Source: an uncultured Clostridia bacterium
GTDB lineage: Bacteria > Bacillota > Clostridia > TANB77 > CAG-508
Assembly (NCBI GenBank): GCA_946410665.1
Contig: CAMKBC010000002.1
Coordinates: 11,926 to 75,925, forward strand
Length of the DNA: 64,000 nt
Direction of reading: 5' to 3'
Below are positions 1 through 52,345 of this stretch, piece by piece (position 1 is the first letter of the stretch; every line of letters starts with the position of its first letter). The position numbers were made by a program, and so were the translations under genes. The notes below the pieces were generated by a model. It saw only the letters and a list, made by a program, of their open reading frames with translations, was not told the origin of the DNA and ran no database searches.

Positions 1-2393
1 TTAAAAATACTGATATTTCGAATAAATATGATGTACAAGGTGATGAAAAATATGGCAATGTCGGAGGATTAATTTCAACTAATAATGCGGAAACTGAATT
101 GATTAATTGTAAAGTTGAAGATATGGCCATTACTACAAGAGGACATATAGCAGCGGGTGGAATTGCAATATCTAATGGAATGGATAATACAGTAATTAAT
201 TGTGAGATAAAAAATGTAGCAATTAGCGATGAATGGCAAGAACCAGAATCATTAGAAGAAGTAGCCGATGCAATGCATAACGAAAGAATTTTTGCTGGAT
301 TTATAGGTGTACAAAACACAACACCAAGCATAAAATTTGACAGTGTTAAAATTTCAAACGTTGATATAGATGCTAAATATGCAAGCATAGGTGGTATCTA
401 TGGAAGCGCAAAGAGAGTTAGACAATTAAAAGATTGTGTAGTTGAAAATTGTAAGTTTACTTCAAAAAAATCAATAAGTGGAGTTAAAGGTTCATGTGCA
501 GGTATTGGAGCAGTAACTGAATCTATGAACTGTGTACCAACAAACAATAAAGTTTCAAATATTGAAATCACAACAGATTATCATATTAACGCAGGAATGT
601 TTGGATATATAAAAGATAGTAGCGCAGATACTATAACGATTAATGATTCAACAGTTGAGAATGTGACATTAACTCATGAAAATGAAGACTTAGAATACAA
701 TGTTGATCATGATGAAAATAATCCAAATATATTAATTAACTACAACCCACTAGTAGCAGGAGTAGTTGCTATAACAGAAAATGATGTTACAATAAACAAT
801 GCGACAGTTAAGAATAGCACAATGAATGTTAAGAATGGTGGTTCATCAGGATACACACATGTAGGTGGTATTATTGCATTATCAGGATCAAACATTAATA
901 TTGATAATTCTAAAGTTATAAATACATCAATAATAAATAATACTAATTTCTCAATCACGGGTGGATTAGTAGGATTAAATACAAAACTAATGACTCAACC
1001 AGAACAAGAGAGAACAACGACAATAACAAATTCTTCAATTGAGCAAAACAGTTCTATTGATGCAAACAATCAAATTGGTGGTTTAGTAGGATTTGCAAAA
1101 GTTCAATTGAACAATGACAAAGTTTTAAATCTAATAGTTAGACCTATACAAATGGGATACGTTGGTGGCGCAGTAGCATTAACTACAACTGGTGCAAGTA
1201 CAATATCAAATGTAACAATAAAAGATTTAACTGTACCTGATGGAGAGATAGTACCTACTAACGTAGGTGGAATAGCAGCACAATTTAGTGGAACGTTGAA
1301 AAATTCAACAGTAACAGATTCAACATTAGTTGCAAATCAATGTGCCGCAGGTGTTGTTGCAATTTCTCAAAATCCAACATCAGGACAACCATCTGAAATT
1401 AGCGATGTAACAGTAACAAATGTAACAGTAACATCAAAAGGAAATATTGCAGCAGGTGTAGTAGCAGTTACACCTGGAAAAATTGTAAATGCAAAAGTTT
1501 ATAGTTCGGAAATTGAAACAAAAGGAACAAACATGGCTGGTGGTATTGTTGGTACTTCAAACAACACAATAAGTGATGTAATAGTTGAAGGAACAGATAT
1601 CACATCAAATGTTGCATCATCTAGCTCAAGTGCAGGCGGTATTGGTGCATGTTTGTATGGTGCAGTATCGAATGCAAAAGTTAAAGACTCAAACATAAAA
1701 GCACAATGGCATGCGGGAGGTATTGCAGCAACAACAATGTCATCAATAACAGAAGCAGAAATTGACAATGTAGATATAAGCACAGTAATTCAAAGTGCAG
1801 GTGGCGTTGTATCATGTACAAATGGAACAGTAACAAATGCTAGTGTAAAAGATTCAACAGTAAAAGGAAATTTAATGGCAGGTGGTGTTGCAGGATTTGG
1901 AATATCATCAATTAGCGGAGTTGAGGTGAACAACACAAGTGTATATGCAGTAGAAGACGCAGGAGGCGTCGTAGGAGTAACGAGTGGAAGCATAAACGGT
2001 GCAGAAGTAACCGAATCAACAATTGTATGTAAAAAATTAGCAGGTGGTATTGCAGGAACTATGGAAACTGAAATTAAGAATGCAACTGTAGATGGAAGTA
2101 CAATTACATCAGAAGAAATGCACGTTGGTGGTATTGTAGCTTGTACTAGAGCAACAATAGATAACTGCACAACTAAAAATTCAACAATCAAAACATTAAA
2201 AGGATCATTCGGCACAAGTAATCCAAACCCAACATGCTTAGGAGGATTAGTTGGAGCAGGATCAGGTGATAGCCCATCAATAATTAATTCAACAGTTGAA
2301 AACAACACATTAACAGGAGCAACAGGAACATTAATAGGAAAATACATAGGAGCTCCTACAGAAATTAATGAGCAACTTGTAGCCGGAGAATAA
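1..2393 (+). CDS. C-terminal fragment (at least 797 aa) of a giant GLUG-repeat surface protein. The N-terminus lies upstream of the window.
   Basis: The reading frame is open from nt 3 to the stop at 2391-2393, so the ATG at 99 is internal. About 22-aa periodic repeats carry (A/V)GG(I/V)(A/V)G, i.e. GLUG-like, motifs. The C-terminal cap PTCLGGLVGAG...NNTLTGATGT.IGKYIGAP...QLVAGE is nearly identical to residues in the 2768-aa protein. Confidence 0.8.
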   Translation, partial: KNTDISNKYDVQGDEKYGNVGGLISTNNAETELINCKVEDMAITTRGHIAAGGIAISNGMDNTVINCEIKNVAISDEWQEPESLEEVADAMHNERIFAGFIGVQNTTPSIKFDSVKISNVDIDAKYASIGGIYGSAKRVRQLKDCVVENCKFTSKKSISGVKGSCAGIGAVTESMNCVPTNNKVSNIEITTDYHINAGMFGYIKDSSADTITINDSTVENVTLTHENEDLEYNVDHDENNPNILINYNPLVAGVVAITENDVTINNATVKNSTMNVKNGGSSGYTHVGGIIALSGSNINIDNSKVINTSIINNTNFSITGGLVGLNTKLMTQPEQERTTTITNSSIEQNSSIDANNQIGGLVGFAKVQLNNDKVLNLIVRPIQMGYVGGAVALTTTGASTISNVTIKDLTVPDGEIVPTNVGGIAAQFSGTLKNSTVTDSTLVANQCAAGVVAISQNPTSGQPSEISDVTVTNVTVTSKGNIAAGVVAVTPGKIVNAKVYSSEIETKGTNMAGGIVGTSNNTISDVIVEGTDITSNVASSSSSAGGIGACLYGAVSNAKVKDSNIKAQWHAGGIAATTMSSITEAEIDNVDISTVIQSAGGVVSCTNGTVTNASVKDSTVKGNLMAGGVAGFGISSISGVEVNNTSVYAVEDAGGVVGVTSGSINGAEVTESTIVCKKLAGGIAGTMETEIKNATVDGSTITSEEMHVGGIVACTRATIDNCTTKNSTIKTLKGSFGTSNPNPTCLGGLVGAGSGDSPSIINSTVENNTLTGATGTLIGKYIGAPTEINEQLVAGE
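1149..2199 (+). repeat. Intragenic tandem repeats of about 22 aa (GLUG-type solenoid repeats) in the giant-protein fragment
   Basis: The pattern ..AGG(I/V)A(G/A)T....I.....V...T(I/V).S.. recurs more than 15 times. Confidence 0.6.
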
Positions 2394-2679: not shown

Positions 2680-4095
2680 ATGTTAAATCAAAAGACAAAA
2701 ACAAAAAGAGATATTGCGGTTATATCAATTGCGACAATGATTATTGTTACATCTTTAGTAATGATTGTTAGCATGATAAGAAGTAATTCAACAGCATCAT
2801 TCTCGTTAGTATCTAAAAGTTATTTAGAATCTAACACAGAGAAAACAGGAAAAGTTACAGTTAATTACTTAGACACATTTGGAAATGAAATTTCTGATTC
2901 AACAGAAGTTAGTGGAAAAGTTGGAGAAGAATACAGCGTTGAAGCGAAGAAAATCGAAAGTTATATTTTACGCACAAACCCTTTTAACAGAAAAGGTAAT
3001 TTTGATGTGGCTACACAAAATGTAGATTTTGTTTATGAGAAAGACACAACAACAGTTGATGAAAATTCTGATGGACAAAATGTCGTAGTTACTATTTATA
3101 AAAACAAGGATGCAAAAGTTGATGATTATAAGTTAGTTATCAAAACAATCGATGAAGAAGGAAATGCACTACCAGGAACAGGATATAAAACTGTAAATGC
3201 AAACAATGCTGTTGTAAGAAGCACAACTGACTACACAGGAAATTATGTTGTTGGCTGTATCACACTAGATGGTGTTGGAACAGAAAAATACACAACAACA
3301 GAATTAAAATGTGTTGAAGGTTACATTGCTTTAAATGGATCAATTAATTTAACAGTTAACAAAACACAAGATGGTGATGCTTATAAACTTGATGCATCAA
3401 TTGAAGAAAAGGAAAATGTTTCTTTAAATGTTGATCATCAAAACAAAGAAGTAGTTATCACAGTTGTTAAGAAATTAGTTCCTGCGCCAAATCCTCCAGA
3501 AACAGGAGAAAAGATTTTTGATTTAACAATTGATAAAAATATAAAGACAGTAAAAATTAAAAACTCAGCAGAAGAAAAAACAATAACAAAAAACAATAAA
3601 GATGAATTAGTAAAAATTGATTTACCAAAAAGTAAATTAGCAGAAACAGAGCTAACAGTTACTTATGAAATAGTTGTTAAGAATGTAGGAGAACTTGCAG
3701 GATATGCAACATCAGTAATTGATGACCTACCAGCAAGAATGAACTTAACAGAAAACAATGTTGATTGGACTCAAAATGATGCACATGCAATCTCAACAAA
3801 ATTTGCATCAACTTTATTAAATCCAGGAGATAGTGTAAGTCAAGAAATCGTAGTTAAAATTAATTTAACAAATGACGATGTAGGAACAAAAATAAATAAA
3901 GCAAACATTAGCACATATTACAATGATGAAGGAATTAAAGATAAAACTCCAGATAACAATACAGAAGAGCCATTATTAATTACAGTTAAAACTGGACATG
4001 ATGCATTAATTCCACTAGCAGCTTTAATGATGATTGGAGCAGCTACATTATTAGTTTATGTGGTTAAAAAGAGAAACACAAACTCAAATGAGTAA
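2680..4095 (+). CDS. DUF11-type surface protein (471 aa) with an N-terminal signal anchor and a C-terminal hydrophobic anchor plus KKR tail
   Basis: RBS agaaggaaaag precedes the start. The N-terminus has a TM segment. There is a DUF11-like segment, and DKTPDNNTEE resembles the D.DS.P.N...EDD signature. The C-terminus VKTGHDALIPLAALMMIGAATLLVYVVKKRN looks like a sorting signal but has no canonical LPXTG. Confidence 0.65.
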   Translation: MLNQKTKTKRDIAVISIATMIIVTSLVMIVSMIRSNSTASFSLVSKSYLESNTEKTGKVTVNYLDTFGNEISDSTEVSGKVGEEYSVEAKKIESYILRTNPFNRKGNFDVATQNVDFVYEKDTTTVDENSDGQNVVVTIYKNKDAKVDDYKLVIKTIDEEGNALPGTGYKTVNANNAVVRSTTDYTGNYVVGCITLDGVGTEKYTTTELKCVEGYIALNGSINLTVNKTQDGDAYKLDASIEEKENVSLNVDHQNKEVVITVVKKLVPAPNPPETGEKIFDLTIDKNIKTVKIKNSAEEKTITKNNKDELVKIDLPKSKLAETELTVTYEIVVKNVGELAGYATSVIDDLPARMNLTENNVDWTQNDAHAISTKFASTLLNPGDSVSQEIVVKINLTNDDVGTKINKANISTYYNDEGIKDKTPDNNTEEPLLITVKTGHDALIPLAALMMIGAATLLVYVVKKRNTNSNE

Positions 4096-4162: not shown

Positions 4163-7100
4163 ATGAAAAGAAAAGTTTTTATTTTAAGTTCAATAATTTT
4201 CATATTGGTTGCAGCATTAGGAGCTATGTTCTTAGTGCCTAATAAAGTTGAAGCGGATGTAGCAACAGATGAAAATTCAATAACATGGAACTTCACAGTA
4301 AGTGGAGGAAATTTAATTAACTTAACATATAATTCAGGAACTATTCCTGCTGATGGAAAAGTTGTTATACCATCTAAATTAAATTTAAATGGAGTTGAAT
4401 ACACAGTAAGATCTTTAGGAAATACAACTTCTACTTATAGATCAATATTCTATAATGCATCATCAGCTAATAGAAATAGAATTAAAGAAGTAGTTATACC
4501 AGATACAGTTACAGAAGTTAAAAATTATGCTTTTTATAACGTACCTAATTTGACAAATATCGTATTCGGAGATGGAGTAACATCTCTTGGATATTACATA
4601 TTCGCAAACACATCAGTATCAGAGGTTGTATTACCTAAAAATATAACATACTTAAATTCTACTACATTTGCTGGTTATAATGGTAATAAAAATAATACAA
4701 TAAGAAAAATTTATATTAATGACAAACTAAATCTAAGCTACTTAAGTAGTGTTGTTTCATACACACCATACGTAACAGCGTGGGGAGTAAGAGAAGATAG
4801 CGAAAAATATGTTGAAGTAGACGGAGAATTATATAGTGTAGATGGCAAAACTTTATGTTTGATAAGACCTCAATACACAGAAGCAACATACACAGTTGGA
4901 GAAGAAGTTACAGACATAGGAGACTATGCTTTCTATAATAATAGAAATATAAGTACTGTTGTTTTGAACGATAACATCAAAACAATAGGAAATTACGCTT
5001 TTGGTTATTGTAGTAATTTAAACACTATAGATTTACCAGATTCATTAGTTTCGATTGGAAACGATGCGTTTATTAGTAGTGCATTAACGGGAGAATTAAA
5101 ACTACCAGAAAATCTTACTAATATAGGAAGAGAAGCCTTTTATAACTGCTCAAGACTTACAGGAGATTTAGTGATTCCTGATTCTGTAACGACAATGGGT
5201 GCATATGCGTTCAGAAGTTGCTCAGGATTTAATGGTAATTTAATAATAGGCAACGGATTAACAACTATAGAAAACTATGCTTTTTATGGTTCAGAGAATT
5301 TTAAGAGAATTACGATTGGATCTGGAGTTGAAAGAATTAAAGACAACGCTTTCAGCAATTTAAAAGATTTCTGGATTAATAGATTTGAAGGAGAAGTTTA
5401 TTTTGAAAGTAATTTCGGTGGATCAAACAGTAAACCATTCCCACATTATTTAAATGGAACACATAGAGTTACAATAGGTACTTCTGAAGGAATTAAAGTA
5501 GTAAATGCAGAAACAGGACTAGAAGTAGTAAGCGGAAATTACGAATGTGAAACATCATTCAGATATAAAGTAGTAATTGAACCAGGTTATAATTATCCTG
5601 ATTTGAAAATAGTTGAAATTAATAATGGAGAAATTGATAATGCAGTAAGTTATAACTATGTAGAAGGACAAGAATATGAATTTTCTACATTATTAAGAGA
5701 CAGAAGAATTTATATTGAATCAATTAAAGAAGGAAACGATTTATCATTAAGAACATTTGTAACAGATGTAAACTACACAACAATTTCTAAACCAAGAATT
5801 CCTATGGCAGAATTGACTAAAGGTGAATTCAAATATGTACACACAAAAAATCCAGTAAGAGTTGAAAACAATGATGACGTTACATTCAAGGTAAGAGTAT
5901 ATAACGAATCATTATCAAAAGTTTCAGCAGATGAAATAACAGTATATATTCCAGAAGGAATGTCATTTGATGAAGAAAACATAATTAACCAAAAAAATGG
6001 TTGGACTCTATCAAGTGAGGGAGTTGTTAAATCAACGAAGTTAGCAGAAAATTTAATTCCAGGATATTATGGAAATGGAATAATTTCTTATAGAGATTTA
6101 GAGTTATTATTAAAGGTTACAGATTCAACTTCTGAAGAAGATTTATACAAAACAGTATTTGCAGAAATAACAAGAGAAAGTGCAACAGATACTGATTCTA
6201 CACCAGGAAATGTCACTGTTTCTCAAAATTACATGATTAATGAAATTTTAAGTTCGAATGCAAATTCTGCTATTGTTTCACAAGAAGATGATGACGACTT
6301 TGATACAGTGGTATTAAATGCTAAGTTTAGAGTTGAATATGCAATTAGAATTAATAAAATTGATTCGAAGACAGATGAAGTTTTAAAAGGTGCAAAATTT
6401 AAACTAACTTCATTTGGAACAAATGAATTAGAAATTACAGAGAACAATACAAGAGTATTAAAGAGATACAATGATGGCGAGACAATTGCAACTGCAACTT
6501 CAGATGAGAATGGAGCTGTAGATTTCGGTGGCCTTGTATCATATGGTGAGGGTGAAAACGAATACTTAATTGAAGAAATTGATGCTCCATCAGGCTACTT
6601 AACAAACATCGGTAAAAAGATGAAAGTAAGAGTAGAAAAAATTATCATTGATAAAGAAAAAGGAACATACGGAGTAAAAGTATTCTGTGGTTCTACAGAC
6701 TATGCAATTGACACATCAACATATAATTTCACACCAGTAAAGACAGCTGAACAATTAGCTAAAATCGGTAGTGGTGAAGTAGTAAATGTTGATGGAGTAG
6801 ATTACGAATATAATATAGATACAAATTATAAATTAATCGATGATATTGATTTATCAGGAATTAATTGGACACCAATCAAGAATGAAATTAAAGGTGTGTT
6901 TGATGGTAATGGACATAAAATTAAGAATCTAACAATTACTTCAGATGATATATTAACATATTCAGAGGTTGGATTGATTTCTACATTCTCTGGAATTGTA
7001 GAAAACTTAACTTTCGAAGATCCTAATATTCACATTAGAACATTTGCTGAGAATGCAGTTTCTAATTCTGGATATACAGGAGTTGGATGTTTTGCAGGTG

Positions 7101-10100
7101 TAATGAGACAAGGTGGAATCTATAATTGTAAGACAACAGTAACAGAAGGTACATCAGCAAGCATTACTGCAGTAGCAGATAACTTAGGAGGTATGGTAGG
7201 ACATACTACTCCTGATGGATTAGTTACAGTAATTGATTGCGAAAACAATATTGAAATTATCGGACAAGAAGAAGAGATAGCTGGAGAACTTTTAAAGAAT
7301 AAAAATGTTGGTGGATTAATTGGATGTGCACTAGGCTCAATTAGCGTTCAAGACTCAGTAAATAACGGACATTTAATAGCAAAAGAATATAATGCCGGTG
7401 GATTAGTAGGTTTTGTAAACCCATCAGATTATAGAGAAATGTTATTATCAGCAGGTTATGATGAAGATAATAAACGTATTGATTTATTAGTAGAAAATGA
7501 AGCTGCAGAAGGTCAATACAACTTAACTCTTGAAATAAGAGACAGAAAAACACAAGCTTTAATCGGTGGAGCAACATACGAAATCGATAAAGTAGAAGAT
7601 ATGGTTATGACACAATTACTTGATACTGGATCATTAAAATTATTTGATAAAGTAATCGAGTATACAGGTAGAGATGTTTACTTCTTAACAGAAGATGAAA
7701 CAATCGAGGGTTATAGCAGATTAAATGGCATTATTAAAGTAGTTATCGAAAGATATTGGGATACTACTGCTCAAGAGTACAAAGTAAGAGCGGAAGCAAC
7801 AATCGTTTCACATAAAGAATACGAAGAGTTTGCAGAGCAAAGAGAAACAAACAATGCTGATGTAAAAGGTCAAGAATTTGACAGAGGTTCAGTATTCACA
7901 GATGCAAATATAGTAAATGCAAACTGGTATGGTAAGAAAGCTGATTTTATAAACAATACAAACAATGGATTAGTACAATCAAATTATATGAATGCAGCAG
8001 GTATACTTGGAACATCATACGGATTAGTAGAATTTGAAAACAATACAAACAATGGAACAATAGTATCTAACACAAAAGCAGCTGGTATGATTGCAGAATT
8101 AAGAACTGTTAATGGAAGAGATGGCTGGGACGATGTGCAGTACAATACTCAAGATACTACTGCAAATTCAAAATTCACAGAATGTACAAACAATGGTGAA
8201 ATTTACACTATAGGTCAAAGTTGGCAAGATTTAGGAAACGCTGGTGGATTGGTTTCAGAGATAAGAGGCTATGCGATTATTGAGAAAGCAACTAACAACG
8301 GAAAAATAACATCAAGTGGAAAAAGACAAGTTGGTGGTATTCTAGGACAAGCTTCTGGTGGAATTGAAATAAAGGAATCTGTAAATAAAGGCGAAATAAT
8401 AGCAGTATCGAGCGAATCTGATGTAGATAATCTTGCTGGTGGTATTATGGGACAACTTAGATGCGTTTCTGATTATTGCGAAAAAACACCATTCAAAAAT
8501 AATTATATTAGAATTAGTAAATGTAAGAACTATGCTAATGTAATGTCTTCTGGTGCAACATCTGGAATTTTAAGTGAAGCTTCAGGAAACGAAGTAACAA
8601 TCACAGACTGTGAAGTTAAAGGAACAGAAGAAAATAAATTAAATATAAGTATGACTCAAGATGGCGCTTGTGCTGGTGTACTTGCACTTGAAGGATGTAA
8701 ATATACGAATATTAAAAATAACATAGTAGAGAATTGTAAAATTGAAGTATTGAGTTTTGCAGGCTACGATACTTATGATTCATGTGCTGGAATTTTAGCA
8801 AATGTTGACTATAATTCAAATGTAGCAGGATTAACTCCAAAGAGCGGAGAAAACACATCAATTGAATCAATTATTGTTAATAACAATATTGTAAGAAATT
8901 GTTCAATAATAGATAGAAATAAAGAGTGTGGTGGTATCGTTGCTACTACTAACGTATATGATACAAATTGTTTAACATCAATTAACAATTGTTTAGTAAA
9001 AGACACAGAAATACTAAATTATAACTATCAAAATAGTACATATAACATTTCTGGTGGTATTTTCGCAGGTGGTGGATATGGAAATGGTAAAGTAGAGATT
9101 AACTACTGTCTTGTTGATAATACTAGAATCATCAAGAGCAATCCTGGCGGAGGTCCTGGTCCTGGACAATCAACAATTGGTGGTATCTTCGGTAGAGGAA
9201 ACCGCATAAAAGGAATCAAGATTGAAAATTGCGATTTCAAAGATTCATATATATATGATAATGCTCTAGATTCTACATCAGGTAGCCCTGGCGGAATCTT
9301 TGGAACATGTTATAGCATGTATGGAGATCTTGTTATAAGAGGATGTAATTTAATAAATTCAACAATTAGAGAATATGGACAAAATGTTGGTGGATTTATC
9401 GGCGGTGTCGAAGACGTTAATGGAACAGTTATAGTAGAAGACTGTGAAGCAATAGAGACTAATATTAGTAGAGAAATTTTGGGTGACTACAGAACAGTTT
9501 ATAACGATGTCGGATATGTAGTAGGTTTCATTATGGATGCCGATGCTATACGATTCAAAAATATAAATATTATAGGAAAAGATTTACCAAAAGGATCAGA
9601 AGGAAGAACAACAATTTATTCTGATGGTGCTAATATAGGTGCCGTTCTTGGTTGTGTAATGATTACTCCAAAATTCGAAGCAGAAAATATTACTGTAAAA
9701 AATATTGACATAGTAAACACAGTAGGCGAACATGGTTTTCCTGATCTAGATGCTGCACAAATTGGTGGTTTCGCTGGACTTATGATGTGTACCACACATT
9801 CAATTGATGGATTCACATTAGATAATTGCGATGTAAGAGGAAACAAAGTATTTAATGCTGGTGGTATTACATCTACAATGTTTGGTAGCAACAATGTAAT
9901 CAAAAACATAAATATAAAAGATTCATATATTACAACTAACTTAAATCTAGATGATGGAGTTAGTACATATGGACATGCAGCAGGTTTAATAGGAGAACAA
10001 ATTTATTCAGCATCATATGAAAACTGCAACGTTGAAAACTGTAAGATTTCGTCTGGCTGCGTTGGAGCATCAGGAATGATTTCATGTAACCACGGAAATA

Positions 10101-12469
10101 CAACAGTAAAGAATTGTACAATCAAAAATATCGAATTAGTTGATACATGGGAAAATCCACAAGGTGAAGTACCTGTTGGAAATGGATATCAACATTACAG
10201 ACCATTTGGTGGAGTTATATCTGTAGGAAACGGTATTGAAATAGACAATGTTTCAGTAGATGGATTTAAATGCTATGGAAAATATGCTCATATAGGTGCG
10301 ATAGCAGGATATGCTAGTAATGCTTCAATAACGAATTGTACTGTTAAAAATGCAGATATATATAGTGAAAGAAATATTTCAGGATCAAATGGAGCTGTAG
10401 GTGGAATAATAGCAGATGGTTGCTATTTAAAAGAATTTAACAACAACAAGATTAGTGATTCAAAAATTGTTACAACTACACACTTATTAGGCGGAATGAT
10501 AGGTACATTAAGTCCATATGGAAATCTAACTTTAAGTGATTGTGAAGTTGATAATGTAGAGCTTATTCATAAGAATATGAGCCATTTTGTAGAACAGGGA
10601 TATACTGCAAGTGCACCATCAATGGGTGGATTCGTATCTCAAACAAGTTCAAATTGTGAATTTAAGAATATAACAGTTAAGAATAGTACATTGAAAGCAG
10701 AAAATCCATCTGGAATTCCTCTACAAGTAGGTGGTATTTTAGGACATGGCAATTCAACATTAGATAATGTAAATGTAATCAATACAGAAATTGAAAACTT
10801 ATCAGCTAGCTCATGTACTGGTGGACTTGTAGGAATGGGCTTTGGCTTAACAATCAAAGATTCAGCAGTAAAACAAAACAGTAAAGTAAAAGGTAACTGG
10901 CATACAGCTGGTCTAGTTGGATTAGGTGTTATAACAGTTAACGATTCAAAAGTATTAAATACTAATATCGAAACATTAAGTGAAAATGGTGCGTTAGCAG
11001 CTGGTGTTCTAGCTATTGGAAATGAAAGAGATTCACAAGGCGTATTTAGACCATCAACAATTAATGGAGTAGAAATTAAAAACACAAATATCAGTGCACC
11101 AACAGTAAGCAATGCATATTCAAACCATGTAGGTGGTATTGCAGGAACTTACGCAGGAACAATTGAAGATGTTACAATGACAAATGTAGATATTACAACA
11201 GGAGCTCTTGCAGCAGGTGTTGTAGCTGTTCAAGAAAATGTTGGTAGCATTTCAGATGTAGAATTAAATGATGTAAACACAACATCAGCAAATGCTTTAG
11301 CAGGTGGTATTGCAGCTGTATCAAATTCAAATATTTCAGATGCAAAAATATTAAATTCTGAAGTAAAAGGTAAAGATATGACAGGTGGTATTGCAGCAAC
11401 AAATAATGGATCAACAATTGATGAAGTTGAGATAAATAATGTAAAAGTTACTTCTCAAGCATCGCATGCAGGTGGTGTTATAGCTTGCACAACTACAAAA
11501 GTATCAAATGCAATTGTAAAGAATTCAAATATTAAAGCAAATGCTTTAGCAGGTGGTATTACCGGAACAAGTTATTCAAATATTGAATCTGTAGAAATTA
11601 ATGGTACAACAATTAAGTCAACAGTATCACATGCAGGCGGCGTTGCTGGAACATCATATGTATTAATTAAAGATGCAACCGTAAAAGGTTCAACAATTAC
11701 AGGCAATCAATTAGTTGGTGGTATTGTAGGTACTTCAAATGCTGAAATTAATAATGCAAAAGTAGAGGGGTCAACAATTAAATCTGAAGCACTACATGCA
11801 GGTGGTATTGCTGCTTGTACAGTATTCCCTGTAACAGGATCAAAAGTAAAAGATTCAACAATTATTACTTTAAGTGGAACATTTGAATCAGTATCTAACA
11901 TACTTCCTACATGTCTAGGTGGATTAGTTGGAGCTGGAGATACAGATTCAACAACTGGTGAACTAAAACCAGACCTAGCAACATCAACTGTTGAAAATAA
12001 CACATTAACAGGAGCAACAGGAACAGTAGTAGGAAAATATATCGGAGCACCTAAAGCACTTAATGATCAATTAGTAGCAGGTGAAACAACAACTAATCCA
12101 GATACAAATAACACATCTGGAGCACCATTAAATTCAATGGCGCCAACATCATCAAATACACAAGCTTCACCTAAAACAATGTCATTAAATGCACAACCAA
12201 AATCAAGTGAAGATCAAGTAGATGATTCTGATAAAACAACTAATACTGAAACAACTAGTGGCACAAAAGAGGATAAAACAGAAACTGAATCAAATAAAGA
12301 AACAGAAATTGAAAAAGAATCTGAATCTAAAACAGAAGACACTCAAACAAAAGGTGAGAGTGAATCTGATAAAGAAGAAACAACAAGCACAAAAGAAGAT
12401 GACAAAACAGAAGATAAGACAGATTCAACAGACAAAACAGAAGAAAGTGCTACTAAAGGAAATGAATAA
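4163..12469 (+). CDS. Giant secreted surface protein (2768 aa): signal peptide, BspA-type LRR, DUF11, Cna-B-like domain, GLUG-like repeat solenoid, and an acidic K/E/T/S-rich tail
   Basis: Signal peptide MKRKVFILSSIIFILVAALGAMFLVPNKVEA. LRR_5/BspA-type repeats read (I/V)PDSVT.IG..AF..C..L. DUF11 carries DTDSTPGN...QEDDDDF. Cna-B-like segments read TDENGAVDF...EEIDAPSGY. Dozens of GGL(V/I)G GLUG-like units follow. There is no TM or LPXTG at the C-terminus. Confidence 0.85.
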   Translation: MKRKVFILSSIIFILVAALGAMFLVPNKVEADVATDENSITWNFTVSGGNLINLTYNSGTIPADGKVVIPSKLNLNGVEYTVRSLGNTTSTYRSIFYNASSANRNRIKEVVIPDTVTEVKNYAFYNVPNLTNIVFGDGVTSLGYYIFANTSVSEVVLPKNITYLNSTTFAGYNGNKNNTIRKIYINDKLNLSYLSSVVSYTPYVTAWGVREDSEKYVEVDGELYSVDGKTLCLIRPQYTEATYTVGEEVTDIGDYAFYNNRNISTVVLNDNIKTIGNYAFGYCSNLNTIDLPDSLVSIGNDAFISSALTGELKLPENLTNIGREAFYNCSRLTGDLVIPDSVTTMGAYAFRSCSGFNGNLIIGNGLTTIENYAFYGSENFKRITIGSGVERIKDNAFSNLKDFWINRFEGEVYFESNFGGSNSKPFPHYLNGTHRVTIGTSEGIKVVNAETGLEVVSGNYECETSFRYKVVIEPGYNYPDLKIVEINNGEIDNAVSYNYVEGQEYEFSTLLRDRRIYIESIKEGNDLSLRTFVTDVNYTTISKPRIPMAELTKGEFKYVHTKNPVRVENNDDVTFKVRVYNESLSKVSADEITVYIPEGMSFDEENIINQKNGWTLSSEGVVKSTKLAENLIPGYYGNGIISYRDLELLLKVTDSTSEEDLYKTVFAEITRESATDTDSTPGNVTVSQNYMINEILSSNANSAIVSQEDDDDFDTVVLNAKFRVEYAIRINKIDSKTDEVLKGAKFKLTSFGTNELEITENNTRVLKRYNDGETIATATSDENGAVDFGGLVSYGEGENEYLIEEIDAPSGYLTNIGKKMKVRVEKIIIDKEKGTYGVKVFCGSTDYAIDTSTYNFTPVKTAEQLAKIGSGEVVNVDGVDYEYNIDTNYKLIDDIDLSGINWTPIKNEIKGVFDGNGHKIKNLTITSDDILTYSEVGLISTFSGIVENLTFEDPNIHIRTFAENAVSNSGYTGVGCFAGVMRQGGIYNCKTTVTEGTSASITAVADNLGGMVGHTTPDGLVTVIDCENNIEIIGQEEEIAGELLKNKNVGGLIGCALGSISVQDSVNNGHLIAKEYNAGGLVGFVNPSDYREMLLSAGYDEDNKRIDLLVENEAAEGQYNLTLEIRDRKTQALIGGATYEIDKVEDMVMTQLLDTGSLKLFDKVIEYTGRDVYFLTEDETIEGYSRLNGIIKVVIERYWDTTAQEYKVRAEATIVSHKEYEEFAEQRETNNADVKGQEFDRGSVFTDANIVNANWYGKKADFINNTNNGLVQSNYMNAAGILGTSYGLVEFENNTNNGTIVSNTKAAGMIAELRTVNGRDGWDDVQYNTQDTTANSKFTECTNNGEIYTIGQSWQDLGNAGGLVSEIRGYAIIEKATNNGKITSSGKRQVGGILGQASGGIEIKESVNKGEIIAVSSESDVDNLAGGIMGQLRCVSDYCEKTPFKNNYIRISKCKNYANVMSSGATSGILSEASGNEVTITDCEVKGTEENKLNISMTQDGACAGVLALEGCKYTNIKNNIVENCKIEVLSFAGYDTYDSCAGILANVDYNSNVAGLTPKSGENTSIESIIVNNNIVRNCSIIDRNKECGGIVATTNVYDTNCLTSINNCLVKDTEILNYNYQNSTYNISGGIFAGGGYGNGKVEINYCLVDNTRIIKSNPGGGPGPGQSTIGGIFGRGNRIKGIKIENCDFKDSYIYDNALDSTSGSPGGIFGTCYSMYGDLVIRGCNLINSTIREYGQNVGGFIGGVEDVNGTVIVEDCEAIETNISREILGDYRTVYNDVGYVVGFIMDADAIRFKNINIIGKDLPKGSEGRTTIYSDGANIGAVLGCVMITPKFEAENITVKNIDIVNTVGEHGFPDLDAAQIGGFAGLMMCTTHSIDGFTLDNCDVRGNKVFNAGGITSTMFGSNNVIKNINIKDSYITTNLNLDDGVSTYGHAAGLIGEQIYSASYENCNVENCKISSGCVGASGMISCNHGNTTVKNCTIKNIELVDTWENPQGEVPVGNGYQHYRPFGGVISVGNGIEIDNVSVDGFKCYGKYAHIGAIAGYASNASITNCTVKNADIYSERNISGSNGAVGGIIADGCYLKEFNNNKISDSKIVTTTHLLGGMIGTLSPYGNLTLSDCEVDNVELIHKNMSHFVEQGYTASAPSMGGFVSQTSSNCEFKNITVKNSTLKAENPSGIPLQVGGILGHGNSTLDNVNVINTEIENLSASSCTGGLVGMGFGLTIKDSAVKQNSKVKGNWHTAGLVGLGVITVNDSKVLNTNIETLSENGALAAGVLAIGNERDSQGVFRPSTINGVEIKNTNISAPTVSNAYSNHVGGIAGTYAGTIEDVTMTNVDITTGALAAGVVAVQENVGSISDVELNDVNTTSANALAGGIAAVSNSNISDAKILNSEVKGKDMTGGIAATNNGSTIDEVEINNVKVTSQASHAGGVIACTTTKVSNAIVKNSNIKANALAGGITGTSYSNIESVEINGTTIKSTVSHAGGVAGTSYVLIKDATVKGSTITGNQLVGGIVGTSNAEINNAKVEGSTIKSEALHAGGIAACTVFPVTGSKVKDSTIITLSGTFESVSNILPTCLGGLVGAGDTDSTTGELKPDLATSTVENNTLTGATGTVVGKYIGAPKALNDQLVAGETTTNPDTNNTSGAPLNSMAPTSSNTQASPKTMSLNAQPKSSEDQVDDSDKTTNTETTSGTKEDKTETESNKETEIEKESESKTEDTQTKGESESDKEETTSTKEDDKTEDKTDSTDKTEESATKGNE
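4380..5400 (+). repeat. BspA-type leucine-rich repeat block (about 12 repeats)
   Basis: Repeating units include VVIPDTVTEVKNYAFYNVPNLTNIVF, IDLPDSLVSIGNDAFISSALTGELKLP and LVIPDSVTTMGAYAFRSC. Confidence 0.7.
5830..6310 (+). other. DUF11 (conserved repeat domain) within the 2768-aa protein
   Basis: FKVRVYNES...VYIPEGM...DTDSTPGN....SQEDDDDFDTV matches the D.DS.P.N / EDD signature typical of DUF11. Confidence 0.55.
7290..12070 (+). repeat. GLUG-like motif region, including Cna-B-like inserts
   Basis: Recurrent NVGGLIGCA, AGGLVGFV, AGGLVSEIRG, VGGILGQASGG, AGGIMGQL, IGGIFGRGN and similar units occur at roughly 25-30 aa spacing. Confidence 0.65.
11100..11840 (+). repeat. Tandem periodic repeats of about 22 aa, the same family as at 1149..2199
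   Basis: TGALAAGVVAVQENVGSISDVELNDVN / TSANALAGGIAAVSNSNISDAKILNSEVKGKD / MTGGIAATNNGSTIDEVEINNVKVTSQAS / HAGGVIACTTTKVSNAIVKNSNIKA and further copies. Confidence 0.65.
11906..12085 (+). repeat. DNA-level duplicate of 2228..2393, the C-terminal cap module shared by two giant genes
   Basis: gttgaaaa(t/c)aacacattaacaggagcaacaggaaca matches at 35 of 36 nt between copies, and the flanks are also similar. Confidence 0.7.
12080..12469 (+). other. Low-complexity acidic, Lys- and Thr-rich C-terminal tail. It contains no hydrophobic anchor.
   Basis: The tail reads TTTNPDTNNTSG...KTETESNKETEIEKESESKTEDTQTKGESESDKEETTSTKEDDKTEDKTDSTDKTEESATKGNE*. Confidence 0.7.
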
Positions 12470-12492: not shown

Positions 12493-12523
12493 AAGCGGAG
12501 AGTAAAATCTCCGCTTTATTTTT
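12493..12523 (+). terminator. Rho-independent terminator
   Basis: The stem gcggaga/tctccgc has loop gtaaaa and is followed by tttattttt. Confidence 0.65.
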
Positions 12524-12585
12524 GTGATGCGATTTTTTATCAATAAAATGTTTAAAATTAAAAGTCGTTATATTATAATAAGCAC

Positions 12586-13287
12586 ATGATGAAAACAAAG
12601 CGAGAAAAAAATAAAAAATCTAAGAGATTTATATCGTTTATATTCATCATCTTATTACTCACGACAATAGTCGTAGCGGCGATTTTTATAGGTGATAATA
12701 TGAATATAGTGGGACTAAATAAAGAAGCCTCAGATTATCTAGAAGAACTAGAAAGATTGAACGTAAGTTTAGATGATGAAGATAATAATAGTATTAATAC
12801 TCTCGAAATAAACGCTTCTGCGGAGGCAAATGAGATTGTTGAAGAAAAGGAATCTCCACGAGGAATAGCCTCAGAAAGTAGAGTATACAAAGGCTATACA
12901 GTAGCGGGAAAGATTGAAATGCCTTCAGTAAATTTAAGATACCCAGTATTAGATACAATGACTAATGCAAATGCACTTGAGGTTTCAGTATGTATTCAAT
13001 ATGGAGTACCATTAAATACTGTAGGAAACACAGTCATCATAGGTCACAATTATAAAAATGGATTGTTCTTTGGAAGCAACAAGAACATGAAAAACGGAGA
13101 TCAAATTCACATTACAAACTATGCAACAGGTGTAAAAAAGACATACAGTATTTACAGCATTTATCAAACAGAAGAATCTGATACATCTTTTTACAACCGT
13201 GACACGGGTGGAAAGAGCGAGATTACATTAATAACCTGTCAAAACAATAATAAATACAGATTAGTAATTAAAGCTAAAGAAATATAA
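12586..13287 (+). CDS. Sortase (233 aa). Its size and the NPQTN-like substrates nearby suggest class B.
   Basis: A basic N-terminal stretch precedes a TM anchor. Catalytic His sits in VIIGHNY, catalytic Cys in ITLITCQ, and the conserved Arg in YRLV. Confidence 0.85.
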   Translation: MMKTKREKNKKSKRFISFIFIILLLTTIVVAAIFIGDNMNIVGLNKEASDYLEELERLNVSLDDEDNNSINTLEINASAEANEIVEEKESPRGIASESRVYKGYTVAGKIEMPSVNLRYPVLDTMTNANALEVSVCIQYGVPLNTVGNTVIIGHNYKNGLFFGSNKNMKNGDQIHITNYATGVKKTYSIYSIYQTEESDTSFYNRDTGGKSEITLITCQNNNKYRLVIKAKEI

Positions 13288-13312: not shown

Positions 13313-14953
13313 ATGAAATTTTTAAAAGAATTGTTATACTCATTTACAATAATACTTACAATTGCTTACATAGTGTTTAGAATTGGCTTCACACTACCAG
13401 TAACAATTGGTCCAGTAGCAGTTATATTTTCAGTAATAGTACTACTCTTGGAAATTTGGGATGCAATTGATTTTACAGTATATTATATGAATATCTTAGG
13501 AGTAGATCGCAAAAACAAAGCCCTACCTAAGATTAAAGACGAAGACTATCCAGATGTAGATGTTTTTGTAGCAACAATTAACGAGAACGAAAAAGTTTTA
13601 GCAACAACAATTGAAGCTTGCAAAAATATGAAATATCCAGATAAAAAGAAAGTTCATATTTATATTTGTGATGATGGAAACAGAAAGAACATCAAAGAAC
13701 TTACAGAAAAATTAGAAGTAAATTATATTACTAGATTATCAAACAAAGATGCAAAAGCAGGAAACTACAATAACGCATTAAAAAAGACCAAGTCACCATA
13801 TATTGCAACATTTGATGCAGACATGATTCCTACTGAAGACTTCTTAATGAAAACAATTCCTTATTTCTTAGGAGAAGATAAAAAGGTTGGATTTGTACAA
13901 CTTCCACAGAGTTTCAAAAATCCAGATATCTTCCAATTACGTTTCAAATTGGCTGATAAAATTCCTTTCGAGCAAGATTATTTTTATCGTCAAATTCAAT
14001 TATCAAAAAATGATATTAACACAGCAATAAATTGCGGAACTAACTTAGTTCTTTCAAGAGAAGCATTAAATAGCATTGATGGTTTCGCAAGAAATACAAT
14101 AACAGAAGATATTGCAACTGGTATGTTAATGGAAAATGCAGGATATACAGGTATTGCAATTGACGAAGTTGGAGCTCATGGAAACAATGTTAACGATGTA
14201 ACATCATTCATTAAACAACGTTCAAGATGGGCAAGAGGATGTATCCAAGTTGCAAAGAACTATAAGATTTCAAAGCAAAGAGGATTATCATTTAGACAAA
14301 AGTTGGAATACAAATCATGTATTTCATATTGGTTTTACGGAATTAGAAGAATGCTTTATATGTTGGCACCATTACTATTCACAGTATTCGGAGTAATTAT
14401 CATCGACTGTGATTTAAGAATATTCTTAGCAGTATGGCTTCCAGCATATTTAATAAAGAGATTCTTAATTGACTTAACAGAAGGACATCATCGTTCATCT
14501 ACATGGAACAAAATTTACGAAACAATATTAACACCAGTACTTTGCAAGGAAGTATTAAAAGAACTATTAGGCTTCGGAAGCACAAAATTCGAAGTTACAC
14601 CAAAGTATTCAGTAAATAAAAAGATGACAAGAACACATAAGAAATTATTTGTTTCACATTTTATTTTATTAGCAATCAGTATTGCAGCTTTGGTATACAG
14701 TATAATTCGTGGACAAGGTGCATTCTACTTTGATTCATACTTCAATAGCATGACGTTCAACTTATCATTGATTTGGTTAGCATCAAATATATTCTACTTA
14801 ACATGTGCTGTAATATTTGATTTAAGTAATAGAACAAAGATACCAGAAGACTTTGTTCCTAACAAATTAGAAAAATACAAAAGATCTTCTATACCATTTA
14901 TCTTTATAAATATTTTTAGAAGAGATAAAAAAGAAGCAAAAGAAACTAAATAA
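13313..14953 (+). CDS. Processive family-2 glycosyltransferase, cellulose-synthase-like (BcsA/CcsA-like core with no PilZ domain)
   Basis: Motifs present are DVFVATINE, ICDDG, KDAKAGNYNNAL (HAKAGN-like), FDADM, QLPQSF (QTP-like), TED and QRSRWARG (Q.xRW). Multiple TM segments are present. Confidence 0.85.
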   Translation: MKFLKELLYSFTIILTIAYIVFRIGFTLPVTIGPVAVIFSVIVLLLEIWDAIDFTVYYMNILGVDRKNKALPKIKDEDYPDVDVFVATINENEKVLATTIEACKNMKYPDKKKVHIYICDDGNRKNIKELTEKLEVNYITRLSNKDAKAGNYNNALKKTKSPYIATFDADMIPTEDFLMKTIPYFLGEDKKVGFVQLPQSFKNPDIFQLRFKLADKIPFEQDYFYRQIQLSKNDINTAINCGTNLVLSREALNSIDGFARNTITEDIATGMLMENAGYTGIAIDEVGAHGNNVNDVTSFIKQRSRWARGCIQVAKNYKISKQRGLSFRQKLEYKSCISYWFYGIRRMLYMLAPLLFTVFGVIIIDCDLRIFLAVWLPAYLIKRFLIDLTEGHHRSSTWNKIYETILTPVLCKEVLKELLGFGSTKFEVTPKYSVNKKMTRTHKKLFVSHFILLAISIAALVYSIIRGQGAFYFDSYFNSMTFNLSLIWLASNIFYLTCAVIFDLSNRTKIPEDFVPNKLEKYKRSSIPFIFINIFRRDKKEAKETK

Positions 14954-14960: not shown

Positions 14961-16286
14961 GTGATTAAAATAAGAAACAAGATTTTGGCACTTGTAATTG
15001 TTGCATTCATCATTACATTAGTTACAGCAGTAGCAATAAAAATGAATAATGACAACAATAAGCAAGCAAATGTAAATGAAACAAACGAAACAAATACAAT
15101 CGAGCAACCAACAGAGAACAATACTAACTGGCTTAGAGTTAATGGTTCAAAAATTGAAGACTACAAAGGCAATGTAGTTCAATTAAAAGGTTTAAGTAGC
15201 CATTCTGTTATAGATTTTTCAGAAGTAGTAACATATGAAAATCTTAAGAAACTTAAAGAAGGCTGGGGCATAAACTGTTTTAGAATCGCAATGTATACAG
15301 ATCCAAATGTTAATGGATATGTTTTAACAAAAGACAAGAACAAGGAAAACGCAATCAAGATAATTGACATGTGCGAACAACTTGGAATATATGCTGTTAT
15401 GGATTGGCATACATTAAATGATGGAAATCCTCAAACATATCAAACAGAAGCAATCGAGTTCTTTAATGAAATATCAGAAAAGTACAAAGAGAATCCTTTC
15501 TTAATATATGAAATTTGCAACGAACCCAATAATTGCGCATGGGGAGAAAATGTAAAACCATATGCAGAAGAAGTGATAAAAACAATTAGAAAGAATTCGC
15601 CCAAAGCAATGATTTGGGTAGGCGTACCAGGATGGGGTAAAAGCATCGGAGATGCAAAAGAAAGCCCTATAGAAGTTGAAAACATAGCATATACATTCCA
15701 TTTTTATGCCGGATCAATGGCAGATGATTATAGAAGAGCTGTAGATAAGTGCTTAGAAGCTAATCTTCCAATAGTTGTTTCAGAGTGTGGAATAACTGAC
15801 CTAACAGGAAATGGAGATATATACAAAGAAGAATTTGCAAAATGGGTAGATTACCTAAATTCACACAGTATTAGCTGGATATTCTGGCAATTTAGTAACA
15901 AGGAAGAAAGTTCATCTATTCTAACAAAAGAATACGAAGTTAGAAAGAAAGTGTTCGGAGTACCTGCAAATACAGAAGAAAATAGCACTGAAGATAATGC
16001 GGCAGAGCCTCAAGAAGTATGGATTGAAACAAATTATGACATCAATAACTTCCTAACAGAGACAGGAAAATATGTTAAGGAGATGCTATCAAGAGAAGCA
16101 CCACTAACACCAATAACAATACCAGATACAAACGAGACTAATATAACGAATACAACAGAAAATATAGTAAATGGAGTTGATGCAAACAGCACTAGTAACG
16201 TAATAAATAGTGTAAACGCTGAAAACACAGCAAATTCGGTAGAAAGTGACCTATTTAAACAACTTCAAGACTTATTAAATCAATAA
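14961..16286 (+). CDS. Glycoside hydrolase family 5 endo-beta-glucanase with an N-terminal signal anchor and a C-terminal Asn/Thr-rich tail
   Basis: The GH5 NEP acid/base motif is IYEICNEPNN and the nucleophile region is IVVSECGI. The start is GTG, lying 7 nt after the GT2 stop. Confidence 0.85.
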   Translation: MIKIRNKILALVIVAFIITLVTAVAIKMNNDNNKQANVNETNETNTIEQPTENNTNWLRVNGSKIEDYKGNVVQLKGLSSHSVIDFSEVVTYENLKKLKEGWGINCFRIAMYTDPNVNGYVLTKDKNKENAIKIIDMCEQLGIYAVMDWHTLNDGNPQTYQTEAIEFFNEISEKYKENPFLIYEICNEPNNCAWGENVKPYAEEVIKTIRKNSPKAMIWVGVPGWGKSIGDAKESPIEVENIAYTFHFYAGSMADDYRRAVDKCLEANLPIVVSECGITDLTGNGDIYKEEFAKWVDYLNSHSISWIFWQFSNKEESSSILTKEYEVRKKVFGVPANTEENSTEDNAAEPQEVWIETNYDINNFLTETGKYVKEMLSREAPLTPITIPDTNETNITNTTENIVNGVDANSTSNVINSVNAENTANSVESDLFKQLQDLLNQ

Positions 16287-18666: not shown

Positions 18667-18745
18667 TAATTTAATTAAAATAATCAATAATTACATATAT
18701 GTTTTTATTATTAAATAGCACGTTTTTCTATTGAAAAATAAAGCC

Positions 18746-18820
18746 AAAACTGATATATTTAATGTGAATTTTTGTAACAACAGAAAGGAGCATAATATAT
18801 CAGTTTTTTGTTGATATATT
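18746..18820 (+). promoter_or_regulatory. Perfect 14-bp inverted repeat (aaaactgatatatt ... aatatatcagtttt) followed by a T-run and a third direct copy of tgatatatt
   Basis: The arms lie at 18746-18759 and 18794-18807 with a 34-nt loop containing aaaggag. tttttt follows, and tgatatatt recurs at 18812-18820. Confidence 0.35.
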
Positions 18821-18830
18821 AAGGTTTTTA

Positions 18831-20357: not shown

Positions 20358-20400
20358 ACATCAAGCACAAAAGATTTGAAAACACACGGAGGAAAACTAT

Positions 20401-21168: not shown

Positions 21169-21190
21169 ATCAAAAAATGAAAGGTGAACA

Positions 21191-21592
21191 ATGAGAGTTT
21201 TTACAGGTACCGACATCATTGAAGTTAATAGAATTCAAAAAGCAATGCAAGATGAAAACTTTAGAAAAAGAGTTTTTACAAATGCTGAGATTGAATATTG
21301 CGAAAAATTTGGTGACAGAAAGTATGAACACTATGCTGCAAGATTTGCTGGTAAAGAGGCAATATTCAAAGCAATTTCACCTGAATTAACAAAAAAATAT
21401 GATATAGGTTGGAAGAACATTGAGATTCAAAGATCAGAAGACGGAAGACCTGTTGTTTCAATAATAGCTGATGCTGAAGGAAAGCTAACAGCTATTGTAG
21501 AAAAAATAAAAGAAGAAAATATGGTTATAGATGTAAGTCTATCACATCTTGAATCATACGCTATAGCTACAGCAACTGTAGTAGTAAAGTAG
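21191..21592 (+). CDS. acpS: Holo-[acyl-carrier-protein] synthase (4'-phosphopantetheinyl transferase)
   Basis: GTDIIEVNRI...RVFTNAEIEYC...AARFAGKEAIFKA is the canonical AcpS signature. The protein is 133 aa. Confidence 0.9.
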   Translation: MRVFTGTDIIEVNRIQKAMQDENFRKRVFTNAEIEYCEKFGDRKYEHYAARFAGKEAIFKAISPELTKKYDIGWKNIEIQRSEDGRPVVSIIADAEGKLTAIVEKIKEENMVIDVSLSHLESYAIATATVVVK

Positions 21593-21600
21593 GAGCAAAG

Positions 21601-22365: not shown

Positions 22366-22428
22366 TTGTAATAATGCTATAATATTTTTGTTACGCTTAA
22401 AGCATGAGAATGCTTGCAAGGAGGTTTT

Positions 22429-52345: not shown

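Follow-up and report, generated by a model that had tools for sequence, protein, structure and literature searches.

A stretch of 64,000 nucleotides from contig CAMKBC010000002.1 of an uncultured Clostridia bacterium (hereafter the window) carries a series of genes for very large cell-surface proteins. Four giants, designated A, C, D, and E, are encoded together with a small surface protein (B), a sortase, a cellulose-synthase-like glycosyltransferase of family 2 (GT2), and a glycoside hydrolase of family 5 (GH5), and a block of conserved genes lies in their midst (Table 1). All 27 relevant open reading frames (ORFs) of at least 150 amino acids (aa) are on the plus strand. The G + C content is 29–35% across the window, with a GC skew that is positive throughout, and searches for tRNA genes and for tandem repeats at the DNA level within these bounds found none. 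The closest named relative is Clostridium sp. CAG:793, with a TatD identity of ∼60%.

Table 1. Features of the window, with positions counted from its first nucleotide
Feature	Position	Strand	Description
A	3..2393	+	at least 796 aa; C-terminal part of a giant GLUG beta-helix protein, continuing past the left window edge
B	2680..4095	+	471 aa; small surface protein, 68 bp upstream of C
C	4163..12469	+	2768 aa; secreted giant with signal peptide (..VEA|D)
Terminator-like hairpin and T-run	12493..12516	+	after C; divides C from the sortase operon
Sortase	12586..13287	+	233 aa; N-terminal transmembrane anchor, IIGHN His, TLITC Cys, downstream Arg
GT2	13313..14953	+	546 aa; BcsA-like processive beta-glucan synthase
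GH5	14961..16286	+	441 aa; membrane-anchored endoglucanase; PF00150, 185 bits
Terminator-like hairpin	~16296-16335	+	after GH5
Conserved backbone, outside the adhesin system	16420..23442	+	SpoIIE-like, WG-repeat (508 aa), 255 aa unknown with transmembrane tail, ACPS, TatD, G5/YabE-like; housekeeping/sporulation-type
D+E segment	23460..52399	+	28.9 kb; 45 bp in its place in the nearest species (L002)
D	ORF 23522-35212 (3896 codons); likely start ATG 23684	+	~3842 aa; starts MKVNLRK, signal-peptide-like
E	ORF 35438-52345 (5635 codons); likely start ATG 35480	+	~5621 aa; starts MKTLKLKK

The initial annotation had described a single adhesin island of ∼40 kb with four secreted megaproteins on one strand, a dedicated sortase, and an exopolysaccharide (EPS) operon. 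The giants themselves are confirmed at the sizes given in Table 1. Each is encoded by an uninterrupted ORF, from 0.8 to 5.6 thousand codons long, in DNA of 31% G + C, and lengths of this order in AT-rich DNA make a chance origin impossible. Together they account for 13,095 codons, or 61% of the window, close to the ∼62% of its coding capacity estimated earlier. The view of them as secreted, adhesin-type surface proteins is likewise upheld. The organization of the genes leads to a different picture, and we put it at somewhat better than even odds that the window holds two neighboring but separable cell-surface loci of a low-GC, spore-former-type gut Clostridia bacterium, one combining a glucan synthase with a giant protein of leucine-rich repeats (LRRs) and the other formed by the D/E insertion.

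Domains were assigned by scanning whole proteins and sub-fragments with Pfam, counting matches at the gathering score (20.5 bits for Glug, PF07581), and NCBIfam was also used. Pfam supported the assignments of LRR_5, SpaA/CnaB-type, Laminin_G_3, MucBP, DUF11, sortase, GT2, and GH5 domains. The claim that all four giants are built from GLUG repeats holds for A (68.7 bits), D (35.8 bits), and C (28.7 bits on the fragment aa 1898–2228, with the whole protein at 19.1, slightly under the cut-off), but not for E, in which neither the whole protein nor any of ten fragments gave a Glug match. The pattern GG[LIV][VIA]G occurs 13 times in A, 29 times in C, and 14 times in D, at a spacing of 27–30 aa, and once in the 5635 aa of E. 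Paralogy among the giants is partial and mosaic: A matches the C-terminus of C with 33% identity over ∼800 aa, the C-termini of D and E share 32% over ∼1000 aa, and aa 526–846 of C are 35% identical to aa 299–650 of E.

Giant C begins, behind its signal peptide, with BspA-type LRRs (∼aa 60–400; LRR_5, 161.9 bits), followed by a DUF11-like/SpaA region (∼526–846), a GLUG-type right-handed beta-helix (∼1000–2650), and an acidic low-complexity tail that is also found in its orthologues in two related loci, L083 and L085. The N-terminal 400 aa thus resemble BspA-type LRR_5 proteins such as Tannerella BspA and streptococcal HupY/LrrG. The match to the NCBIfam HupY/LrrG adhesin model is, however, partial and far under the equivalog cut-off (89.8 bits against 1250), and C differs further in being fused to a GLUG beta-helix of ∼1600 aa, in lacking an anchor, and in the linkage of its gene to a glucan synthase. 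The structural check suggested for the repeat blocks was carried out on aa 1900–2650, for which AlphaFold2, given a 13-sequence alignment, produced an all-beta solenoid with a period of ∼27–30 aa (predicted local distance difference test (pLDDT) 87.5; predicted template modelling score (pTM) 0.89). Its Foldseek neighbors are right-handed beta-helix proteins, namely alginate lyases of polysaccharide lyase family 6 (PL6), AlgE4, Ag43, phage tailspikes and depolymerases, entry 3n6z, and IgA1 protease, and the GLUG region of C is predicted to be a helix of this kind. Known structures with the Glug motif, such as the Bacteroides ovatus ‘putative IgA1 protease’ BACOVA_03286 (3n6z) and Streptococcus pneumoniae IgA1 protease (6xjb, 7uvl), match the model of C with Foldseek probabilities of 0.97–1.00. 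They differ from the giants in that no peptidase domain was detected in the latter, whose GLUG solenoid is several times longer.

The small protein B is composed of an N-terminal transmembrane (TM) or signal segment, a MucBP domain (PF06458, 57.4 bits), a SpaA-fold domain, a DUF11 domain, a KTG-type C-terminal motif, a hydrophobic helix, and a basic tail. The DUF11 match (27.8 bits against a cut-off of 24.6) appears only when the C-terminal half is scanned separately, and it bears out the earlier description of a DUF11 surface protein among the giants. The SpaA prealbumin/CnaB-type fold was matched by Pfam in B, C, and D.

The genes for the sortase, GT2, and GH5 follow C with gaps of 25 and 7 bp between them. 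These short gaps and the terminator-like hairpins on either side suggest that the three genes form an operon of their own, apart from C. The EPS operon of the initial annotation is therefore correct as to the cellulose-synthase-like GT2/GH5 pair, but comprises just these two genes, or three with the sortase. The GT2 carries the D,D,D,QxxRW motif set (DAD168, TED264, QRSRW302) and aligned in phmmer with BcsA (4hg6/4p00; 4e-66) over residues 7–460, while its score against the cellulose synthase model TIGR03030, 363.7 bits, is under the cut-off of 699.1. A PilZ domain and the motifs RxxxR and D/NxSxxG were looked for in the GT2 and none was found. The GH5 has its acid/base in NEP188 and its nucleophile in VSECG275. 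The product of the synthase could be cellulose, a mixed-linkage glucan, or another beta-glucan.

Both enzymes invite comparison with known synthase systems. The clostridial ccsZABHI cellulose locus has PilZ, CcsB, and acetylation genes (PMC7710045), and deletion of PilZ abolished the activity of RiGT2, a mixed-linkage glucan synthase of Romboutsia (PMC10374906). The window resembles the Bcs (BcsA-BcsB-BcsZ) and Ccs systems in the motifs and BcsA alignment of its GT2 and in the pairing of the synthase gene with one for a glycoside hydrolase (GH5, as in CcsZ). Unlike the synthases of these systems and RiGT2, the window's GT2 is without PilZ. The sortase, GT2, and GH5 genes are alone between the hairpins, so that the operon contains neither a BcsB/CcsB partner nor ccsH/I O-acetylation genes, and the GH5 is of the Bacillus Cel5A type (3e-70) and distant from CcsZ (6uje, only 1.4e-8).

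Two small features of this operon may be recorded. Upstream of the sortase, the most promoter-like sequence (TTTAAA-17-TATAAT, within 12551–12590) ends only 6 nucleotides before the ATG, which leaves no room for a Shine–Dalgarno sequence; the transcript may be leaderless, or its real start may lie elsewhere. In the tail of the GH5 (16120–16160, aa ∼386–395), ‘ITIPDTNETN’ resembles ‘LLPQTNETN’ at the end of E, without a subsequent TM segment, and is probably low-complexity sequence rich in N and T.

The association of the synthase with a giant LRR protein extends well beyond the window. Metagenome contigs searched with the GT2 gave 43 loci, which group into 22 clusters at 90% identity; the 12 clusters with at least 8 kb of context were counted. 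The GH5 gene directly follows that of the GT2 in 10 of these 12. A large BspA-type LRR_5 ORF lies within 10 kb of the GT2 in 10 of the 12 lineages, at GT2 identities of 46–97%, compared with 2 of 75 control loci anchored on TatD (Fisher p ∼1e-9); among the TatD loci of the closest relatives, one of ∼21 has an LRR_5 giant. The two informative lineages in which no LRR giant was found near the GT2 are L112 and L114. At GT2 identities of 54–60% the giant is C-like throughout, with LRRs, SpaA domains, and a GLUG-type helix in 2400–2630 aa and no anchor. A B-like gene always adjoins the C-like gene, either up- or downstream, with gaps of 1–68 bp or an overlap and in any orientation to the GT2. At ∼50% identity the neighbor is an LRR_5 protein of 1800 aa that has a Pro/Glu linker as well as a TM tail. 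A literature search found no relevant report of a link between BspA/LRR proteins and cellulose synthase, or of giants combining GLUG and MucBP; a paper on pilins of TANB77 deals with type IV-like pilins, an unrelated subject.

Anchoring signals separate the giants into two groups. D ends in LPQTSETNSKQ, a hydrophobic segment, and KKNKK, and E in LPQTNETNTKQ, a hydrophobic segment, and KRTKK; these ends score 16.7 and 17.2 bits, respectively, with the LPXTG_anchor model TIGR01167, for which the cut-off is 15.9 bits. The C-termini of A and C were checked and have no sorting signal. B ends (3970–4095) in EEPLLITVKTGHD, a hydrophobic segment, and KKRN, with the motif ‘EEPLLITVKTG’ and a score of 14.4 bits, slightly short of that cut-off. 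The pattern ‘(I/V)x(I/V)KTG’ with a TM segment and basic tail is kept in the B-like proteins of five lineages (L087, L089, L094, L098, and L121), and the signal, in the form ‘(I/V)x(I/V)(K/Q)TG’, recurs in several unrelated giants of the E family (P0026, P0113, P0115, P0126, and P0165). This recurrence suggests that the motif in B is probably a genuine sorting signal. We take it to resemble the (S/P)PxTG and NVQTG substrates of Clostridioides difficile SrtB, and no cognate sortase class was identified for it.

The sortase of the window matches PF04203 (69.6 bits) and the general model TIGR01076 (42.4 bits, cut-off 39.35). None of the NCBIfam class models was passed; class C reached 48.5 bits of the 160 needed. 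The nearest solved structure is Bacillus anthracis entry 2kw8 (1.4e-10), labelled ‘LPXTG-site transpeptidase family protein’ in the PDB and presumably SrtA, a class A sortase, and no database record matched the exact sequence. A sortase-assembled pilus, considered in view of the SpaA domains, was rejected on the class C score and the lack of a meaningful YPK/YPKN pilin motif in B, C, D, and E. The sortase had been described as dedicated to the giants around it. Its neighbors A and C lack sorting signals, the two giants that have them (D and E) lie 10–40 kb away, and no sortase was found near the homologous GT2/giant loci elsewhere except in the window's own genus; the description is not borne out.

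The second locus consists of D and E. In D a signal peptide is followed by 1100 aa without a family match, SpaA-fold repeats, a GLUG beta-helix (∼aa 1980–2500, ORF numbering), more SpaA domains, five MucBP domains, and the LPQTS, TM, and KK anchor. Pfam scores are 84.6 bits for MucBP (five stretches) and 113.5 for SpaA over four stretches, with further stretches on fragments. No Pfam or NCBIfam family matched aa 1–1140 in whole or fragment scans, and the N-terminus has six homologues among 5.8 billion sequences. An AlphaFold2 model of its 1096 aa from 7 sequences is weak (pLDDT 62, pTM 0.33); its Foldseek matches are integrin legs, alpha-2-macroglobulin, and Gram-positive pilins, and with low confidence this part of D may be pictured as a chain of beta-sandwich domains.

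E has a signal peptide, three Laminin_G_3 (LamG) domains (aa 93–251, ∼1990–2130, and 2345–2500, ORF numbering), DUF11-like segments that are sub-threshold in Pfam, and ∼14 MucBP repeats at aa ∼4450–5590, for which the C-terminal part scores 383.3 bits in 13 stretches. Scans of 600 aa fragments found no Pfam or NCBIfam family at aa 620–2340 and 2500–4280. These regions include a module of ∼260 aa in at least four copies: aa 836–1105 (window 37943–38752), ∼1765–1935, 2880–3100, and 3860–4100. Its motifs run ‘TEYxTLxxAI...DLNG...FNFYDG...EAxIG...GSQVEI...KNIKLDLNG’. An exhaustive HMMER search with aa 830–2029 found only 196 representatives among 1.84 billion sequences, nearly all of them multi-copy giants of 1–5 thousand aa from uncultured Clostridia. 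A profile of the module (alignment A3) gave noise alone against PDB sequences (E ≥0.14). That the module is a divergent GLUG region was rejected at the sequence level (hhalign probability against a GLUG alignment 0.04), and it is a candidate for a new domain family.

The nearest known counterparts of D and E are the sortase-anchored, mucus-binding MucBP proteins of lactobacilli (Mub/MUB type), together with further giant LPXTG adhesins of Firmicutes. D and E are like them in having a signal peptide, tandem wall-proximal MucBP domains (5 and ∼14), and an LPXTG-type C-terminal anchor. They differ in their pentapeptides, LPQTS and LPQTN in place of LPXTG, and in the N-terminal 3400–4400 aa, which are unrelated and contain LamG, SpaA-fold, and GLUG beta-helix domains and the ∼260 aa module. 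Attachment to host or mucus, which the initial annotation had proposed, is plausible from the MucBP, LamG, and LRR content.

The two loci are set apart by the 7 kb backbone, for which a comparative set was assembled from GTDB representative genomes with the TatD gene as anchor. Its gene order is identical in ∼20 related uncultured Clostridia metagenome-assembled genomes (MAGs; L003–L022). The nearest species, the uncultured Clostridia MAG L002 (∼84% nucleotide identity), is collinear with the window: the C-terminus of a GLUG protein is followed by sortase, GT2, GH5, SpoIIE-like, WG-repeat, 255 aa, ACPS, TatD, YabE-like, ExoIII-family nuclease, response regulator, histidine kinase, signal peptidase, and HolB genes. 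The site at which L002 lacks D and E lies between the terminator of the yabE-like gene and the promoter of the exoIII-family (Exo_endo_phos) nuclease gene. D, with the start of E where the contig extends, is present in L001 (99.8%), L082 (91%), and L083 (∼88%). The ∼20 farther relatives (TatD 54–65%, including Clostridium sp. CAG:793) keep the genes from SpoIIE-like through TatD and YabE-like to the nuclease, with no giant between the last two and no sortase, GT2, or GH5 upstream. As D and E are absent from L002 and from ∼20 outgroups and present in three close relatives, the pattern is most simply read as a gain within this genus. ORF and Pfam maps, a tRNA scan, and base composition revealed no integrase or transposase, tRNA, flanking direct repeats, or GC shift (the values stay at 30–33%) around the segment, and its junctions consist of terminator and promoter sequence. 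The comparison that the initial annotation had suggested thus shows variability for D and E, a 28.9 kb presence/absence difference, but not for the first unit (A-B-C and sortase-GT2-GH5, bases 1–16.3 kb), which each of the four congeneric lineages seen has kept.

Several observations concern the genes around these loci. Between L083 and the window (3293–25014), identity is 77% for C, 67–69% for D, 82% for the sortase, and 83% for the GH5, and 92–97% for the GT2, SpoIIE-like, WG, TatD, and G5 proteins. The faster divergence of surface genes than of their flanks suggests diversifying selection or recombination acting on exposed proteins. The SpoIIE-like protein is 26–29% identical across the backbone MAGs, compared with ∼50–65% for its neighbors, and scores 118 bits against an equivalog cut-off of 491 for SpoIIE. 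Past E and the nuclease gene, window positions 53443–56547 encode an OmpR-type response regulator, a PAS histidine kinase, and an S26 signal peptidase whose N-terminus is extended by ∼100 aa; all three are kept in L002, which has no D or E, so none of them is peculiar to the insertion.

Gene structure, domains, anchor signals, operon bounds, presence and absence, and gene linkage are direct results, and the fold of the GLUG beta-helix is a predicted model. From the architecture and linkage of these genes we infer how they might work together. At the first locus, the synthase would extrude a glucan containing beta-1,4 linkages, which the GH5 would trim or release. C would leave the cell through Sec and stay at the surface by non-covalent contacts with either the glucan or B, which is coupled to C transcriptionally and carries the conserved KTG-type signal. 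The outcome would be an adhesive or matrix layer of protein and polysaccharide. At the second locus, D and E would be wall-anchored in the LPXTG manner, with a wall-proximal MucBP stalk projecting LamG, beta-sandwich, and beta-helix modules outwards as possible binders of glycans or host ligands; both are presumably anchored by the one sortase that the window shows. The identity of the glucan, the retention of C, the pairing of sortase and substrates, and adhesion itself are all conditional in this scheme. A functional analogy is offered by the CdrA-Psl pair of Pseudomonas aeruginosa, a matrix adhesin and an exopolysaccharide. Like CdrA, C is a secreted beta-helix protein of large size that lacks a covalent anchor and is encoded with EPS genes. 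Unlike that pair, the proteins here share no homology with it, use Sec and not two-partner secretion, and belong to a Gram-positive-type organism, and binding of C to glucan is hypothetical.

The most far-reaching reading is that uncultured gut Clostridia share a widely conserved, hitherto undescribed surface module, in which a PilZ-less BcsA-like synthase and GH5 act together with a giant LRR/beta-helix protein lacking an anchor and with its small KTG-anchored MucBP-SpaA-DUF11 partner to form an adhesive matrix of glucan and protein, a Gram-positive counterpart of the pairs of EPS and matrix adhesin, and that E and ∼200 relatives define a new domain family of ∼260 aa. This remains tentative, with a probability of roughly 0.3. 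Several points weigh against the two-locus scheme in general. No BcsB/CcsB-like partner was found, and the activity of a GT2 without PilZ is not assured, as the related RiGT2 needed this domain (PMC10374906). In the most distant lineages the LRR giants have another architecture, without GLUG and with a Pro/Glu linker and TM tail, and the conserved feature may be just a big LRR surface protein adjoining the synthase. Five of the counted loci supplied the panel used for the LRR search. The controls come from different genomes, so that the enrichment may partly mirror an abundance of such proteins in the genomes counted. No interface by which B might bind C was identified. The window shows only 64 kb of the genome, which may contain further sortases.

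Different explanations can be set against the two-locus scheme. A single apparatus, in which four paralogous GLUG megaproteins share one ∼40 kb island with a dedicated sortase and EPS operon, would account for the close spacing on one strand, for the paralogous segments shared by A and C and by D and E, and for the location of the sortase and GT2/GH5 genes among the giants. The 7 kb of conserved housekeeping genes between the two loci are hard to reconcile with it, as are their different histories, D and E being an independent 28.9 kb indel. With E free of GLUG, the sortase flanked by giants that lack sorting signals, and the homologous GT2/giant loci of other lineages devoid of a sortase, the single-island model is largely refuted, and we consider it improbable. 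Decay or misassembly of the giant ORFs is more improbable by far. The 275-kb contig of L082 (ENA ERZ4903520, locus 1–22115, 91% identical) has D split into at least seven called genes, and its alignment with the window contains 27 gaps that shift the reading frame of D; of 40 single-base gaps, only 4 are in homopolymers. On that contig, though, the SpoIIE-like and GH5 genes are also split, and this pattern is provisionally put down to contig quality. Against an artefact, the four long ORFs are uninterrupted, there are no DNA-level tandem repeats that could collapse, and support comes from independent sequences: the match to L001, a separate metagenome assembly, spans 8.7 kb (16570–25266) at 99.8% without gaps and takes in the first 1.7 kb of D, and L083 (∼88% nucleotide identity) has an intact C orthologue of 2757 aa with 77% identity.

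It is also unlikely that the giants are mainly enzymes or glycan-harvesting scaffolds, with beta-helices serving as lyases, hydrolases, or proteases and LamG domains as carbohydrate-binding modules. PL6 alginate lyases, AlgE epimerases, tailspikes and depolymerases, and GLUG-bearing IgA1 protease entries are indeed structural neighbors of the GLUG helix, E has LamG (ConA-like) modules, a GH5 belongs to the locus, and one related locus has a dockerin protein beside it. However, Pfam and NCBIfam gave none of the giants a match to a PL, GH, or peptidase family, and template modelling scores to the enzymes are low, at ∼0.2, and reflect no more than a common solenoid topology. The self-associating adhesin Ag43 matches just as well, and stalks of MucBP, LRR_5, and SpaA domains are typical of adhesins. 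A similarly doubtful alternative is that the linkage of GT2/GH5 and giant LRR genes is coincidental, arising in genomes with many giant surface genes at permissive sites and independent EPS genes. The variation of gene order and orientation among lineages, the different LRR giant of the most distant ones, and the two lineages without any would fit. Coincidence is more difficult to square with the contrast between 10 of 12 lineages and the few TatD-anchored loci, or with a linkage that survives to 46–50% GT2 identity despite rearrangement, a pattern that usually marks functional coupling.

Firmicutes commonly carry giant modular adhesins, and the recognizable parts of the window all come from known families, to whose adhesin and EPS types they add new members. 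What goes beyond them is the lasting linkage of a PilZ-less BcsA-like synthase with a giant LRR protein, a moderately novel lead, together with the pairing of B and C with its KTG-type signal and the unannotated ∼260 aa module. The surface biology of uncultured Clostridia from human and animal guts is known from their sequences only, and this region separates giants that are stable from those that vary between close species. The variable pair, D and E, with their wall anchors and MucBP stalks, are candidates for adaptation to host or mucus niches. Across deep lineages, the linkage between the cellulose-synthase-like enzyme and a giant LRR protein persists. If this coupling is functional, it would provide a testable model of how an adhesive matrix is built without control by cyclic di-GMP and PilZ; if not, the locus is an ordinary, though large, example of modular Firmicute adhesins. 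The dockerin protein mentioned above belongs to L098, a human-gut lineage whose GT2 shows 55% identity. In the window itself neither dockerin nor cohesin was seen; in L098 a protein of 1341 aa with a type I dockerin and Big_13 is encoded on the minus strand (1620–5642), 4 kb from the GT2, which hints at cohesin–dockerin surface assemblies in such relatives.

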